A stretch of 64,000 bases of DNA from Candidatus Fervidifonticultor secundus (GCA_031459385.1 JAVKIP010000006.1:64001-128000); one strand, 5' to 3'. Counted from the stretch's first letter, positions 23,889 through 64,000 are shown. A program made the numbers and translations. Notes: a model not told the origin generated them from the letters alone.

Positions 23889-25256
23889 TCAGAGGAACGC
23901 GCCGCGCGCGCGCAGCGCCTCCCGCAGTGCCTGCACGTCGATGCCGCGCGGCGTCGTCCCCTGCCGGACGGCGATCGCTGCCGCGATTCCCGCCGCCTGC
24001 GCGATGGCCATGACGATCGCCGAGACCCGGAACGCCGCGGCGGCCTCGTGGGTGGCCGAGATGCACCTGCCGGCCACCAGCCAGTTCTGGCCGCCGCGCG
24101 GCAGCAGGCACCGGTAGGGAATCGTATAGTACTCGCCGTCGGGCAGGCGGCGGGCGACCAGACGCAGCGAGGCCGGATCGTGGATGTCGATCGGGTAGGC
24201 CCCGCAGGCGACGGCGTCATCGAACTTGCGGGCACCCAGCACGTCGTCGGCGGTCAGCACGTAGTCGCCCAGCACCCGCCGGGTCTCGCGCACGCCGATC
24301 TGCGCCGGCGTCTCCAGCAGGTAGGCGGCGGCGAAGCCGGGCACGTGCCGGCGGAGGAACTCCGCCACGAAGTACGCCTGCTGTCGGCCTTCCACCTCGG
24401 CGCGGGCCAGGTCGGCGCCCACGACGCCCACCCGGTCGAGCACGCGCGTGGTGTTCACCACGGCCTCGCCGGGGCGCACGCCCTCGAAGACCAGCAGCCG
24501 GTCGCGGGGGATCGTCCACTCGCCGCGCGCGCGCGCCGCGCTGACCAGCCCCCCGAAGCCCGCGAAGCCGCGCGACGGCAGCCGCCGCAGCCAGCCGACG
24601 TCGATGCGCTCGTGGATCCCCTGGCCGTGCTGGACGTCGTCGGGGTGCGCCGCCAGGTGGTCCATCACCTCCTCCCAGTCCACGCCGCCCAGGCGCATCA
24701 TGAGGGTCATGGGCTGGGGCCGCCCGTCGGCGGGCCGGCCGATCTCGAACGGCGCGCCGGCCGCCACCGACAGGTCGCCGTCGCCCGAGGCGTCGACGAA
24801 CACCGGCGCGCGCAGGGTCTTGATCCCGTCTTTCTGCCAGACGCGCACGCGCTCCACGACGCCGTCGCCCGCGGCCGCCTCCAGGAACACCGTGTGCAGC
24901 CAGAGGTCCACGTCGGCGGCGACCGCCATCTCCAGCAGCACGCGCTTGAGGCCCTCGTAGTCGAAGGGCGTGATGGACGCGCAGAAGTCGATGGGGTCGG
25001 GCACGTGCCCGGGCGAGGCGCCCAGGGCCTGCAGGCGCTCGACGATCTCCTGCGGGAGGCCGCGGACGACCTGCTGCCCGCCGGCGTGGAAGCCCATCAT
25101 CGGCGCCACCATCGCGGCGGTCAGCGTGCCGCCCAGGAAGCCGTAGCGCTCCACGCAGACCACCCGGGCGCCCTCGCGCGCCGCGGCGATGCTCGCCACT
25201 GACCCGGCCGGGCCGCCCCCGACCACCACGACGTCGTAGCGCGCCTCGCCGGTCAC
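23889..25256 (-). CDS. FAD-dependent oxidoreductase (FAD_oxidored type)
   Basis: 'DVVVVGGGPAG', 'VDASGDGDL', 'GVRETRR', 'IPYRCL', 'AGRCIS'. Confidence 0.9.
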   Translation of the reverse strand: MTGEARYDVVVVGGGPAGSVASIAAAREGARVVCVERYGFLGGTLTAAMVAPMMGFHAGGQQVVRGLPQEIVERLQALGASPGHVPDPIDFCASITPFDYEGLKRVLLEMAVAADVDLWLHTVFLEAAAGDGVVERVRVWQKDGIKTLRAPVFVDASGDGDLSVAAGAPFEIGRPADGRPQPMTLMMRLGGVDWEEVMDHLAAHPDDVQHGQGIHERIDVGWLRRLPSRGFAGFGGLVSAARARGEWTIPRDRLLVFEGVRPGEAVVNTTRVLDRVGVVGADLARAEVEGRQQAYFVAEFLRRHVPGFAAAYLLETPAQIGVRETRRVLGDYVLTADDVLGARKFDDAVACGAYPIDIHDPASLRLVARRLPDGEYYTIPYRCLLPRGGQNWLVAGRCISATHEAAAAFRVSAIVMAIAQAAGIAAAIAVRQGTTPRGIDVQALREALRARGAFL

Positions 25257-60078: not shown

Positions 60079-60525
60079 ATGGTGGCGCTGATCGAGCTCA
60101 TCGTGCGCGCGGTCATCGCGACAGGCGACCGGATTCTCGTGGCCCGCAAGCCCGGCGCTGCCCACACCTTCCTCCCCGGCGGCCACGTCGAACCGGGGGA
60201 GCCGGCCGCGGCCGCGGTGCTGCGCGAGCTGCGCGAGGAACTGGGGATGACCGGCCGGGTCGAGCGGTTCCTGGGCGCCGTCGAACACGGGTGGAGGACC
60301 GCCGACGGAGCCGCCCATGAGCTGAACCTGCTCTTCCTGGTCACCGCCCCCGGCCTGGGGCTGGCCACCCCACCCGTGCCGCGGGAACCGCACCTGCAGT
60401 TCTTCTGGCACCCGCTCGACCGCCTGAACGACGCGCGGCTGGAGCCGTGGATCCTTCGAACGGTCCTCCCCGGCTGGCTGGCCTCCGACGGGCCGGGGTG
60501 GGCGAGCACCCTGGCCGTGCAATAA
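60079..60525 (+). CDS. NUDIX hydrolase
   Basis: Nudix box 'PGGHVEPGEPAAAAVLRELREELG'. Confidence 0.9.
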   Translation: MVALIELIVRAVIATGDRILVARKPGAAHTFLPGGHVEPGEPAAAAVLRELREELGMTGRVERFLGAVEHGWRTADGAAHELNLLFLVTAPGLGLATPPVPREPHLQFFWHPLDRLNDARLEPWILRTVLPGWLASDGPGWASTLAVQ

Positions 60526-60577
60526 ACTGGCCGCCCGGGCCCGTCTCTTGGGACAGGCAGCACCCTGGGGGGGACGC

Positions 60578-61176
60578 ATGGCCGAACTTTCGTCTGTACC
60601 CCGTACGGGCTTCGAGGACGTCGTCACGCCCCACCTCGACTACCTGTACGCCGTGGCCGTGCGGCTGTGCGGCGACCGGACGGCCGCCGAGGACCTCGTG
60701 CAGGAGGCGCTGTTGCGCGCATTCCGGGGCTTTGGAGGCCTGCGCAATCGGGACCGTCCCCGCCCGTGGTTGACGCGCATCTCACCCGAGTCTACTTCGA
60801 CCGCGTAGACGCCGCGACGCACGCGCCGGCGGTCGAGCCCGGCGACGACCGCTTCGATCTCTTCGACAAGATCGTCGAGGAAGACCCGTTCCCGTACTCC
60901 GACCGGGTGCACCTCGACTTCCTCGAGCTGTTCGACGACGCCCGCATCATCGAGGTCCTGCAGCGGGTGCACCCTCTGCACCGCGCGGCCATGATCCTCG
61001 CTTACGTCCATGAGTACAAGGCACGCGAGATCGCGGAGATGACCGGCCGGCCGTTGGGCACGGTGCTGTCCTGGCTGCACCGCGGTCGCCGCCAGCTGGA
61101 GCGCGAACTCTGGGAGTACGCGGAGCACCACCGGCTCCTCACGCCGCACCGGGAGGCTTCTCGTGATCAGCTGTAA
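60578..61176 (+). CDS. ECF sigma factor, frameshifted near 60781 (sequencing error or recent pseudogene)
   Basis: Region 2 'AEDLVQEALLRA..WLTRI' in one frame, 'LTRVYFD..EIAEMTGRPLGTVLSWLHRGR' (region 4) in another; adding one C (ATCTC to ATCCTC) restores it. Confidence 0.85.
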
Positions 61177-61402
61177 GGACGCCGTAGCACGGCTGTGGGC
61201 GTACCTCGACCGCAACCTCGGGCGGGTCGAGGAGCGCGAGATGGAAGAGCACCTCGGGCTGTGCCGCCACTGCTGCGGGGAGCTGGAGTTCGCCCGGCAA
61301 CTCCGCGAGCGGTTGCGGCAGGAGGGCCCGGCAGTGACGCTGGCCCCGGAGGTCCGCCGCAAGCTCGAGGCGTTCATCACGAACCTGGGAGGACAGCGAT
61401 GA
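61163..61402 (+). CDS. Zinc-finger (zf-HC2) anti-sigma factor
   Basis: 'C...LWAYLD...EEHLGLCRHC' HxxxCxxC motif; overlaps the sigma 3' end. Confidence 0.88.
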   Translation: MISCKDAVARLWAYLDRNLGRVEEREMEEHLGLCRHCCGELEFARQLRERLRQEGPAVTLAPEVRRKLEAFITNLGGQR

Positions 61403-62222
61403 GCGCCCACGTCCCCCACCCGGCGGTGCGCGCCACCGACGACCTGCTGGACCAGGAGGGGATCCGGGACCTCGTCCGGCAGGCCTACCGCGCGGTCATC
61501 GGGACCAGGACCAGCGTGGCCGAGCGCCTCTACACGCCGGAGCAGCTGCGCCTGCTGCCCCAGGGCGCCCTCGAGCAGGCGCTGGGCGTGGGCAACCCCG
61601 TGCGCGCGGCCGCGCTTTGCCCCGGCGAGGTCGTCGTCGATCTGGGCTGTGGCGGCGGGATCGACACGATCCTGGCCGCGCACGCGGTGGCCCCCGACGG
61701 CAGGGCGATCGGGCTGGACATGCTGCCGGAGATGCTGGCAGTGGCCGCTGCCAACGCCCGGGCCGCGGGCGTGACCAACGTCGAGTGGCTGCGGGGGAGA
61801 TCGAGGCGATCCCGCTGCCCGAGGCCAGCGTGGACGTGGCCATCAGCAACGGTGTCCTGAACCTCTCGCCGCGCAAGTCGCGGGCGTTCGCCGAGGTGTT
61901 CCGCATCCTGCGGCCGGGCGGTCGCATGGTGGTAGCGGACATCGTCGTCGACGAGGACCTGCCGCCGCAGGTGCTCACCAGCGCGGCGGCCTGGGCGGGC
62001 TGACTCTCGGGCGCCCTGGCGGAGCGTGTCTTCGTCAGCAAACTCCAGAAGATCGGGTTCACCGAGATCGCACGCGGCGAGGAGCTGCCCTTCGGCATAG
62101 ACGAGTGCGAGCAGTACCCGCTGTTCACCCCGGAGCTGATCGCGCTCATGCGCCGGCTCATCCCGCCGCAGCGGCAGCCGCACGTGGCGCGGTCGGTCAT
62201 CTTCGCGGCGCGGAAGCCGTAG
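61399..62222 (+). CDS. ArsM-like SAM methyltransferase, candidate selenoprotein (in-frame TGA 62001-62003; frameshift at the G-run 61793-61797)
   Basis: 'LGVGNP..PGEVVVDLGCGGGID..GLDM', 'EIEAIPL..SVDVAISNGVLNL', 'WAG*LSGAL'; coding frame continues 73 codons to TAG. Confidence 0.8.
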
Positions 62223-62283
62223 GAAAGGGTGCGCCGGGGCGCACCGGCGCCGGCGGATGCACCATCGGAGGGGCTGAGCGGTC

Positions 62284-62853
62284 ATGACCTGGGTGCGCAC
62301 GCTGGACGAGGACGAGGTTGCAGACGAGCTGCGGCCGCTCTACGAGGCCGAACTGGCGCGGCTGGGCTTCGTCATGGAGGCCACGAAAGCGCTCTCGCTG
62401 CGGCCGCGGCTGGCGGCGGCCCTGGAGACCTTCACGGCAGCAGTAAAACAGGAGTCGGCGCTGACGCCCCAGGAGCGTCGCCTGATCAGCCTGCTCGTCG
62501 CCCATCGCCTGCGGTCGACGTACTGCGTGCTGGTCTACGCCGTAGACGTCGAGCGCGACCTGGGCGGGCTGGCGCGCGTGCGAGCCGTGCTGCGCGACTA
62601 CCGCACCGCCGGCCTGACCCCGCGGGAGGTGGCGATCCTCGACTACGCCCTGGCGGCCGCCACCGGGCACCCCACCGCCGAGCACGTCGCCGGGCTGCGG
62701 GCTGCGGGACTGGACGACGGCGCCATCATCGACGTGGCGGTCTGGGCCAACCTGCGGGCCCTGCGCAGCCGGGTCTATGAGGCGCTGGGCGTCGAGACCG
62801 ACCCGTTCTTCCTTGAGCAGGCCGACCTGGTCGAGGCTGTCGCAGCGCGGTAG
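62284..62853 (+). CDS. AhpD/CMD-like peroxidase-related protein
   Basis: 'MTWVRTL', 'LSLRP', 'ERRLISLLVA..RSTYC', 'LTPREVAILDYA', 'LRAAGLDD'. Confidence 0.78.
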   Translation: MTWVRTLDEDEVADELRPLYEAELARLGFVMEATKALSLRPRLAAALETFTAAVKQESALTPQERRLISLLVAHRLRSTYCVLVYAVDVERDLGGLARVRAVLRDYRTAGLTPREVAILDYALAAATGHPTAEHVAGLRAAGLDDGAIIDVAVWANLRALRSRVYEALGVETDPFFLEQADLVEAVAAR

Positions 62854-62884
62854 AGAACGTCAGAGAGAACAGGGGGGATCTGCT

Positions 62885-63277
62885 ATGGCACTGTCACGCA
62901 GGCAGCTCCTGAAAGCCATCGGCGCCACGGCCGCCGGTGTCACCGCGGTCGAACTCGCCAGCGCCGAACTCGTCTCGCAGGCCCTGGCGCAGGTCCGCAC
63001 CGACACGCTCGCCGACCATGCCCTCGCCAACATCCCCGGTGTCACGCGGGTGACGCTGATCCAGGCGGTGCTCCCACCCGGGACCCGCGTCACCACCCCG
63101 GCGGGGACGACACTCTTCTGCTGGATGGTCTCGGGCCAGGCCTATCTCACCCTCGGCGGACAGACCAGACGGTACGGGGTGGGCGAGAGTTTCATCGTCC
63201 CCAAGGGCGCCGCGCGGATCGAGGGAAACGACGCGCGGGAAGACAACGTGCAGCTGGTCTTCTCGATCGCCCACTAG
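62885..63277 (+). CDS. Tat-exported small cupin-fold protein
   Basis: 'LSRRQLLK' signal; 'FCWMVSGQAYLTLGG..YGVGESFIVPKG'. Confidence 0.7.
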   Translation: MALSRRQLLKAIGATAAGVTAVELASAELVSQALAQVRTDTLADHALANIPGVTRVTLIQAVLPPGTRVTTPAGTTLFCWMVSGQAYLTLGGQTRRYGVGESFIVPKGAARIEGNDAREDNVQLVFSIAH

Positions 63278-63315
63278 GCGCGCGGGACGCGCACACCACC
63301 AGGGAGGTGACGGCT

Positions 63316-63918
63316 ATGGGGTACGAGCTGGAAGGCGCGCTGCTGGAAGCCTGCTCATGTGCAGCCGTGTGCCCCTGCTGGGTCGGGCAGGACCCCGACG
63401 GCGGGGCCTGCAACGGGCTCATCGCCTACCATTACGACCGCGGGCAGATCAACGGGGTCGACGTGGCGGGCCTGACCCTGGCCCTGGTCGTGCAGATTCC
63501 CGGGAACGTCCTCAAGGGCAACTGGAAGGCCGTGGTCTTCGTCGACAGCAGGGCCACGCCGCAGCAGAAGGAGGCTATCCTGGCGGCGCACACGGGGAAG
63601 CTTGGCGGACCGCTGGCCGACCTGGCACCCCTTGTGGGTGAGGTCCTCGGCGTCTACGACGCGCCCATCGACTTCAGCTTCCATGAGGGCAAGGGACGCA
63701 TCACGATCGGTGACGCGGTGACCAGCGAGATGGAGCCCCTGACGGACCTCCAGGGCCACCCCACGAAGCTCGTCGACAGCATCTTCTCGACCATCCCCGG
63801 CTCTGCGGCCTTCGTCGGCAGAGCGCCCGCGTTCCGGGCCGACGTCCCGCAGCACCGCATCCGATGGGAGTACAGCGGGCGCAACGCGGTGCTGGGGCCG
63901 TTCAGCTTCGCCGCCTGA
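63316..63918 (+). CDS. DUF1326 domain protein (Cys-rich, putative metal binding)
   Basis: 'LEACSCAAVCPCW..PDGGAC', 'VDVAGL', 'GNW..FVD.RAT'. Confidence 0.85.
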   Translation: MGYELEGALLEACSCAAVCPCWVGQDPDGGACNGLIAYHYDRGQINGVDVAGLTLALVVQIPGNVLKGNWKAVVFVDSRATPQQKEAILAAHTGKLGGPLADLAPLVGEVLGVYDAPIDFSFHEGKGRITIGDAVTSEMEPLTDLQGHPTKLVDSIFSTIPGSAAFVGRAPAFRADVPQHRIRWEYSGRNAVLGPFSFAA

Positions 63919-64000
63919 CCGCCGCCCGGGGCCTGCGCCATGATCGCGCCCTCCGCACGCCCGACGACGCCCGCTGGTACCGGCTGGCGCTGGGGGCCCT

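Follow-up and report, generated by a model that had tools for sequence, protein, structure and literature searches.

Extracytoplasmic function (ECF) sigma factors followed by a small soluble zf-HC2 anti-sigma factor are known from SigR-RsrA of Streptomyces coelicolor and SigH-RshA of mycobacteria, and methyltransferases of the ArsM/AS3MT type, which use S-adenosylmethionine (SAM), are represented by the solved structures 5evj, 4fr0, and 4fs8. ArsM-type selenoproteins are on record as well, as an "arsenite methyltransferase" with the selenocysteine (Sec) motif UxxG and as a fusion of ArsM with AhpD (available portions of PMC13188914 and PMC9312934), and NCBIfam includes a model for the ArsM/AhpD fusion selenoprotein, NF041537. 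A locus that joins the two kinds of systems is found near the 3' end of the window, the whole stretch of 64,000 nucleotides (nt) analyzed here, which corresponds to G000:C56:64001-128000 in the draft genome of Candidatus Fervidifonticultor secundus (designated G000; 3.30 Mb, 59 contigs, and 5.5% contamination). It encodes an ECF sigma factor, a zf-HC2 anti-sigma factor, a SAM methyltransferase with a Sec codon, and several accessory proteins. The general kind is known, namely, an ECF sigma factor under a zinc-binding anti-sigma switch and an ArsM-type selenoprotein; neither this combination nor the enzyme subfamily was found described in the literature searched. The locus probably represents a conserved and self-contained stress operon under its own sigma factor, the copy of which in G000 was inactivated recently.

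The features were assigned by comparison with Pfam, NCBIfam, Rfam, and solved structures. G001 and G002, which belong to the same genus, serve as alignment references for the G000 locus, and the intact orthologs of G002 provide the NCBIfam scores.

60519 to 60546, plus strand: ECF-type promoter motif GCAATAA-N16-CGTCT, 31 nt upstream of the sigma ATG
60578 to 61166, plus strand: ECF sigma factor gene, inactivated (Sigma70_r2, 48.6 bits, and Sigma70_r4_2, 44.6 bits, in different frames)
61163 to 61402, plus strand: zf-HC2 anti-sigma factor of 79 amino acids (aa), soluble, intact (PF13490, 34.3 bits)
61399 to 62222, plus strand: ArsM-derived SAM methyltransferase with an ancestral Sec codon, inactivated (Methyltransf_31, 44.6 and 44.3 bits, in two halves)
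62001 to 62003, plus strand: in-frame TGA, ancestral Sec codon, motif WAG-U-LSG, aligned with the third arsenite-binding Cys of ArsM
62016 to 62038, plus strand: candidate bacterial Sec insertion sequence (SECIS) hairpin CUGGCGGAG-CGUGU-CUUCGUCAG, starting 12 nt after the UGA
62284 to 62853, plus strand: AhpD/CMD-like protein with a single conserved Cys, intact (PF02627, 33.1 bits)
62885 to 63277, plus strand: small cupin-like protein with a twin-arginine-like N terminus (SRRQLLK), a lineage-specific insertion (Pfam scores below the cutoffs)
63316 to 63918, plus strand: DUF1326 protein with an N-terminal CSCxxxCPC...C, intact (PF07040, 182.4 bits)
63941 to 64000, plus strand: start of a DUF2182/PpoB2-type membrane protein, the gene of which extends past the window to 64703 (PF09948, 205.5 bits)

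Alignment with G001 and G002 shows that G000 is short of one base at each of four sites, located at ∼60781, ∼61154 to 61161, ∼61793, and ∼63945. The sigma gene carries two of these deletions, the DUF2182 gene carries one, and the remaining one falls in the methyltransferase gene upstream of the Sec codon. The sigma gene switches frame at ∼60781, and the frame starting with the ATG at 60578 ends in a TAG stop codon at 60806 to 60808. The methyltransferase gene switches frame at ∼61793 and runs into a stop codon at 61858 to 61860, 140 nt 5' of the Sec codon, leaving no open frame from the start to the Sec codon in G000. The deletion in the DUF2182 gene follows just past its start, placing the native ATG at 63941 out of frame, in a frame that meets a stop within 20 codons; this gene might be rescued by another, in-frame ATG at 63864 in the DUF1326 gene, and the PF09948 match is obtained on the shifted frame. 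The frames of the anti-sigma factor and the AhpD-like, cupin-like, and DUF1326 proteins are still open. With the missing bases restored in thought, the sigma gene ends in a GTGA overlap with the anti-sigma gene, like that of G002. The sigma factor and the methyltransferase are pseudogenes in G000, and the operon senses and methylates nothing there. An earlier note on this DNA, made from the sequence alone, had taken each of them as one gene within an autoregulated system that it inferred to sense and detoxify a thiol-reactive compound; the two frames and early stop of the sigma gene and the interrupted methyltransferase frame, which that note missed, do not bear this out for this organism.

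It is very unlikely that sequence errors account for the breaks and that the organism has an intact, working operon. The deletions recur in the Logan contigs, which were assembled separately: in all four runs containing the locus, these contigs are identical to the window at all four sites, with no other letter and no gap. The four runs belong to one study and are labelled as hot springs metagenome. A draft genome of 59 contigs with 5.5% contamination is open to errors, one break falls within a run of G, and the high protein identity to the same-genus genomes (91 to 94% for the methyltransferase) fits an intact gene. Frame switches are present elsewhere in G000 as well. In a survey of 212 open reading frames (ORFs) from 21 stretches of G002, each matched in G000 at 65% identity or more, 10 match in more than one frame, comprising this sigma gene, this methyltransferase gene, three paralog artifacts, and five others. 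After exclusions, 5 of about 207 ORFs are affected, a total of 6 switches for about 76,500 codons (about 230 kb), and the four breaks per about 3.6 kb at the locus are far above this background. Different breaks interrupt the same operon in three further genomes, G039, G043, and G093. The Logan contigs, the low rate of frame switches elsewhere, and the lack of an excess of amino acid changes on the G000 branch indicate that the deletions were not made by the assembler.

The five other genes of G000 with frame switches, all of them intact in G002, are located on C8 (about 24835 to 25206), C15 (about 7040), C11 (about 43900), and C5 (about 18340 and 12700). They may be pseudogenes or local errors.

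Close orthologs of the methyltransferase are present in 24 of the 94 genomes of the phylum search (E ≤ 1.6e-52), 22 with TGA and 2 with Cys; two genomes flagged as unpublished, G010 and G019, are counted only among those without a close methyltransferase. The sigma gene lies directly upstream of the methyltransferase gene in all 24 carriers and the anti-sigma gene is present in 23, so the genes do co-occur in other genomes, as the earlier note's module demanded. The constant core consists of the sigma factor, the anti-sigma factor, and the methyltransferase only, and the other genes are accessories. Of the six-gene module put forward in that note, this core holds; the AhpD-like protein and the DUF1326/DUF2182 pair are frequent accessories, and the cupin-like protein is a local insertion. 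Cys versions of the trio also occur in Actinomycetota and Chloroflexota, in metagenome-assembled genomes (MAGs) of a Nitriliruptoraceae (L059) and an Anaerolineaceae (L060) bacterium. Of the named records, the closest is a MAG with the label Candidatus Fervidifonticultor quintus, a member of Candidatus Sysuimicrobiota. The operon is broken in 4 of the 24 genomes, each time differently. Besides the deletions in G000, the sigma gene of G039 is spread over three frames, G043 carries a deletion from residue 166 of the sigma factor to residue 19 of the methyltransferase with loss of the anti-sigma factor, and G093 has the methyltransferase in two frames with a stop within the anti-sigma gene. These different breaks suggest that the operon is dispensable and often lost.

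The three core genes are linked by 4-nt overlaps, with a GTGA between the sigma and anti-sigma genes in G002 and an ATGA between the anti-sigma and methyltransferase genes in both G000 and G002. The ATGA of G000 at 61399 to 61402, already pointed out in the earlier note, is real, and the GTG of the anti-sigma gene at 61163 overlaps the 3' end of the sigma gene. That note also placed the six genes and their families correctly, with Pfam matches backing the sigma, zf-HC2, methyltransferase, CMD, and DUF1326 assignments.

The methyltransferase gene is one open frame save for the TGA in all 19 relatives first examined, in which the codon stands in the motif AAWAG-TGA-LSGALAE or AAYAG-TGA-LAGALAE and is followed by about 70 to 72 conserved codons. 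The same position holds Cys in 78 homologs, composed of 75 canonical ArsM proteins and 3 Cys-type relatives. The reading of the in-frame TGA at 62001 to 62003 as a Sec codon, followed by 72 codons conserved in relatives, is thereby substantiated. The candidate hairpin located 12 nt after the UGA contains 9 base pairs, and in 13 sequences 98.3% of its 117 cells show pairing, compared to 26 to 64% in slid controls. RNAalifold predicts a different, longer fold from the 13 close sequences, which shows almost no covariation; the short hairpin was kept. The Sec machinery of G000 comprises a cluster on C12, made up of selA (548.9 bits), selB (367.6 bits), and tRNA-Sec (64.5 bits), and, at G000:C1:104038-104961, selD (388.2 bits). 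The last gene has an in-frame TGA of its own, and by this codon the selenophosphate synthetase of G000 is itself a predicted selenoprotein.

The methyltransferase is most similar to ArsM. Its best NCBIfam model is NF008823, with 240.2 bits for the intact G002 ortholog against a cutoff of 263, and its best solved structure is ArsM 5evj (E 2.1e-29). The three arsenite-binding Cys positions of ArsM, which are taken here to be C72, C174, and C224 of CmArsM, were compared across 99 loci. The combination C/C/C is found in 75 of them, (V/L/M)/G/Sec in 21, and V/G/Cys in 3. The enzyme of the locus shows Val, Gly, and Sec and retains only the third position. A quick tree separates the C/C/C type from the type with Sec or Cys at the third position only with a Shimodaira-Hasegawa-like approximate likelihood ratio test (SH-aLRT) value of 99 and places the Cys forms among the Sec forms, nested at least three times. 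By residues and tree, the subfamily is a separate clade, apparently an offshoot of ArsM rather than ArsM. A second Sec clade, 46 to 54% identical to the enzyme of the window, stands without the sigma pair at nine loci in eight genomes (seven loci in the first search). It has a different hairpin, which is also conserved, and shows no conserved context at these loci, where the neighbors are heterogeneous (LysR, DUF302, epoxide hydrolase, and others). Among the 120 best database matches, most entries have a length of 193 to 201 aa, break off at the Sec codon, and carry the name "methyltransferase domain-containing protein" or "arsenite methyltransferase." This is an annotation problem, through which the sigma-linked enzyme is hidden in databases, its gene being called as a truncated protein of 201 aa.

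The nearest families and structures, all of them ArsM, and the Sec at the position of the third ArsM Cys speak for an enzyme that still methylates arsenic in an arsenic-stress module, acting on species that need a single protein ligand, such as methylated or thiolated arsenicals; the hot springs label of the runs containing the locus points the same way. In a variant of this explanation, As(III) would be bound by the Sec together with a thiol in trans, either the Cys of the AhpD-like protein or a small thiol. Explanation and variant are both unlikely. All 24 subfamily members examined lack two of the three As(III) ligands, and arsR, acr3, and arsC are absent from the annotated flanks of 17 loci. 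G000 contains a complete canonical cluster of ArsR, a GNAT acetyltransferase, and ArsM at G000:C16:28747-30481 (L149, 4747 to 6481), in which the ArsM has all three arsenite-binding cysteines as well as a CC pair at the N terminus, and 11 of the 13 close-ortholog genomes have a separate stop-free ArsM-like copy. The "metalloid" in the earlier note's description of the module is not indicated, given the loss of two arsenite ligands from the methyltransferase.

The sigma factor consists of regions 2 and 4 only (PF04542 and PF08281) and passes the TIGR02937 cutoff of 42.9 with 68.2 bits (G002 ortholog, the G000 copy being frameshifted). The anti-sigma factor exceeds the PF13490 cutoff of 22.2 and contains the HxxxCxxC motif. 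Its residues C4, H30, C34, C37, and C38 are invariant in all 16 aligned sequences, with the N-terminal Cys located 26 residues ahead of the His, a spacing that is presumably the same as that in RsrA. The description of this protein as RsrA-like is supported: RsrA is its best model, and the extra N-terminal Cys is present, but the score lies under the RsrA cutoff.

A promoter motif, GCAAT(A/C)N-N15-17-(C/T)GTC(T/A), was recognized by eye upstream of the sigma gene in 15 of 17 loci and by pattern in 9 of 11 further loci. The strict motif has a single match in the whole G000 genome, at 60519 to 60546 of the window, where the stop codon of the NUDIX gene lies inside the −35 element. G002, G004, and G058 also contain a single match, G007 contains two extra matches, and G036 has a variant missed by the pattern. 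The promoter search upstream of 60578 suggested in the earlier note thus yields a conserved ECF-type motif, and its position upstream of the sigma gene fits autoregulation of the sigma factor, as far as a motif can indicate it.

The few targets of the strict motif and the 4-nt overlaps across the three genes, which fit a fixed stoichiometry, could also be explained by a methyltransferase that is part of the switch and methylates a Cys of the anti-sigma factor or another protein thiol instead of a small molecule. This role is highly improbable. Enzymes of this type in the second Sec clade have no sigma pair beside them, and fusions of the methyltransferase to a Cupin_2 domain, found in L059 and in three database proteins (P0009, P0012, and P0094), together with the AhpD fusion of NF041537, point to small-molecule chemistry.

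Three further observations concern sites and genes related to this promoter. One of the extra motif copies in G007 lies 40 nt upstream of a gene for a DsrE-like UxxC selenoprotein (G007:C12:124045-124471, L157; PF02635, 47.4 bits) with an in-frame TGA in the motif IYV-U-GGC, an arrangement seen in this one genome only. The G000 homolog of this gene (G000:C3:1814-2174; L164, 1501 to 1861) is without the motif and is frameshifted by one extra G in a G run. G000 also contains the site GGAATAAT-N15-CGTCT at G000:C58:125532-125559 (L150, 1532 to 1559), between a divergent gene for a thioredoxin-reductase-like protein and a gene for a MoeB/ThiF-rhodanese protein, and, at C34:71722-72488, a paralogous sigma/zf-HC2 pair with 43% identity to the G002 sigma factor. 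The site on C58 may be a target of this paralogous pair.

The full gene order on the plus strand is gltB, NUDIX, ECF sigma factor, zf-HC2 anti-sigma factor, SAM methyltransferase, CMD/AhpD-like protein, cupin-like protein, DUF1326, and DUF2182. The NUDIX gene (window 60079 to 60525) lies directly upstream of the sigma gene and is a neighbor only within the genus (G001 and G002). The strand changes 3' of the DUF2182 gene, where a VUT-type transporter and QueF follow in the next 12 kb of the contig, and the block therefore ends there. A sigma-70 promoter scan of the operon found none, a terminator scan found one terminator-like site, within the NUDIX gene and no more than shuffles yield, and Rfam shows no match at E ≤ 1 between 60000 and 64000.

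The AhpD-like gene is found 11 to 93 nt 3' of the methyltransferase gene in 14 of the 24 genomes, with remnants in 2 more. The protein exceeds the PF02627 cutoff of 23 and falls just under that of TIGR01926 (81.5 against 81.8 bits). It contains a single Cys in SxxC instead of CxxC and a Tyr instead of the His of the solved structures 2oyo and 6k40; the CxxC active site with His is absent. The earlier note's view of it as a thiol-centered protein does not hold as described, the protein having this single conserved Cys. DUF1326, usually with DUF2182, stands beside the trio in 8 of the 24 genomes, a count for which only 1.5-kb flanks exist at 11 loci. The DUF1326 protein exceeds its cutoff of 25 bits, and the cysteine cluster ascribed to it is seen at the N terminus as CSCAAVCPC...C. 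DUF2182 does follow base 63940, as the earlier note had expected from its usual association with DUF1326, and PF09948 is now named PpoB2, a copper chaperone, in Pfam. In G025 (L040, 7214 to 7806), the DUF1326 gene beside the trio is split over two frames and interrupted by two stops, and the genes for the sigma factor, anti-sigma factor, methyltransferase, AhpD-like protein, and DUF2182 are intact. The cupin-like protein scores below the cutoffs of both Cupin_2 (23.6 against 27.2) and TAT_signal (20.2 against 22.7), with SRRQLLK visible. It has no homolog at 12 orthologous loci, and 40 relatives yield a single homolog, in G001 at an unlinked site. A twin-arginine translocation (Tat) cupin as a member of the module is not supported by these sub-cutoff scores and the lack of conservation at the locus. 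Two loci contain an OsmC gene and two contain a cytoplasmic cupin, the latter being 82% identical to each other.

For the intact operon, a signal, a substrate, and a partnership with the AhpD-like protein can be inferred, and a mechanism would read as follows. The SigR/SigH-like ECF sigma factor would transcribe its own operon from GCAATAA-N16-CGTCT and would be held by the small cytoplasmic RsrA-like zinc-finger anti-sigma factor. A thiol-reactive agent may attack the zinc-thiolate site of the anti-sigma factor and free the sigma factor, which would then induce the operon. The single selenol of the methyltransferase would capture a soft nucleophilic species as an Se-X adduct beside the methyl group of SAM, and the species would be methylated, with the single-Cys AhpD-like protein as the likely resolving thiol. 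As the substrate class within this stress operon, reactive sulfur and selenium species (persulfide, selenide, and sulfide) are tentatively suggested, arsenic species appear improbable, and the rest of the weight falls on something else. The lean toward sulfur and selenium species over arsenite is due to the missing arsenite ligands and the normal ars cluster elsewhere in the genome, to accessory proteins of peroxide and sulfur chemistry, and to the motif copy before the DsrE-like selenoprotein gene of the single genome G007. A more far-reaching proposal is that the sigma-linked enzymes, instead of being arsenite methyltransferases, form a separate class of single-selenol/thiol SAM methyltransferases that methylate persulfide, selenide, or sulfide held on the Sec in Se-S or Se-Se form, with the AhpD-like protein as the resolving partner and a private RsrA-type switch for each enzyme, controlling hardly more than its own operon. 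This proposal is rather doubtful; if true, it would mean a new detoxification or signaling route for reactive sulfur and selenium species.

Several points weigh against the locus being a recently inactivated copy of such a sigma-controlled stress operon. The four runs are possibly the source samples of the genome, which makes their contigs independent of the assembler and not of the sample, with the library type not on record. The G000 branch shows no excess of amino acid changes (4 versus 2 in the methyltransferase and 13 versus 9 in the sigma factor), so an inactivation would have to be recent. The AhpD-like, cupin-like, and DUF1326 genes are intact, and part of the locus may therefore still be in use. 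The best NCBIfam models of the sigma factor (TIGR02947 SigH_actino, 102.7 bits for the G002 ortholog) and the anti-sigma factor (TIGR03988 RsrA, 43 bits) stay below their cutoffs of 251.55 and 62.5, respectively, and HxxxCxxC alone is insufficient for redox sensitivity of an anti-sigma factor. Base composition leads to an estimate of about one chance match of the strict motif per genome. The uniqueness of the motif is therefore weak, and the argument rests on its position and conservation. Covariation in the hairpin is limited to one pair with changes on both sides, and its observed score is equaled or exceeded by 24 of 500 shuffles. Finally, there is no RNA run among the sequencing runs containing the locus.

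The sigma-linked subfamily with a single selenol was not found described in the literature searched, which did not extend to Haft and Tolstoy 2025. Searches for arsM with an anti-sigma factor returned unrelated papers only, and those for an ECF sigma/anti-sigma/methyltransferase genomic context returned nothing relevant. The main text of the Sysuimicrobiota paper has no mention of "selen," "sigma," or "methyltransferase," and "sigma" occurs zero times in the available portion of the review PMC13188914, which gives no link between a sigma/anti-sigma pair and ArsM selenoproteins. The earlier note did not recognize a characterized pathway here. This is true of the sigma-linked subfamily as far as found; the Sec methyltransferase family itself is already covered in reviews (UxxG, in the available part of PMC13188914). 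ArsM-type selenoproteins are thus on record, with no function tied to the form without two of the three arsenite ligands. This form is now shown as a clade of its own, directly behind an RsrA-like pair and its own motif, in three phyla. The switching between Sec and Cys among close relatives provides natural Cys forms (e.g., P0001), which ease expression and testing. The locus also represents a probable stress gene set common to a group of hot-spring bacteria, with a sigma/anti-sigma switch ahead of a selenium-containing methyltransferase.

Compared to the described systems, the DUF1326/DUF2182 pair has its closest counterpart in DmdF and DmdE of Ruegeria lacuscaerulensis, where the same two families are adjacent. 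According to the available part of PMC12992908, the only literature found on DUF1326 or DUF2182, DmdF (DUF1326) consumes H2O2 in vitro, and DmdE (DUF2182) and DmdF are tied to protection from oxidative stress; homologs outside the Rhodobacterales are called phylogenetically distinct. The locus differs in its order, DUF1326 followed by DUF2182, and contains no dimethylsulfoniopropionate (DMSP) genes. The pair is an accessory at this locus type (8 of 24 genomes), and its DUF2182 gene is broken in G000.

The known ArsM-type selenoproteins share with the locus the UxxG Sec motif and the association with an AhpD-type domain. In contrast to the ArsM/AhpD fusion, the methyltransferase of the locus reaches 180.2 bits against the NF041537 cutoff of 510, and its AhpD-like protein is encoded by a separate gene with SxxC instead of CxxU. 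The likeness to ArsM/AS3MT (5evj, 4fr0, and 4fs8) comprises the SAM-methyltransferase core, which aligns over residues 18 to 226, the motifs DLGxGxGxD and SNxVxNL, and the reactive residue at the position of the third arsenite-binding Cys (CxxG). The other two arsenite-binding cysteines are replaced by Val/Leu/Met and Gly in 24 of 24 subfamily members, the N-terminal Cys pair of the canonical G000 copy is missing, the protein has about 275 aa compared to 377 to 387 aa in the solved ArsM chains, and the score stays below the NF008823 cutoff.

The regulatory pair resembles SigR-RsrA and SigH-RshA in the succession of an ECF sigma factor and a small soluble zf-HC2 anti-sigma factor and in its best models, SigH_actino and RsrA. 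The promoter, read as GCAAT-N19-GTC, presumably resembles the GGAAT-N18-GTT of that system. The differences are the scores far below these models (102.7 versus 251.55 and 43 versus 62.5), the occurrence of the locus type mainly in Candidatus Sysuimicrobiota, a strict motif that marks essentially its own operon instead of a broad thiol regulon, and a methyltransferase gene that overlaps the anti-sigma gene by 4 nt.

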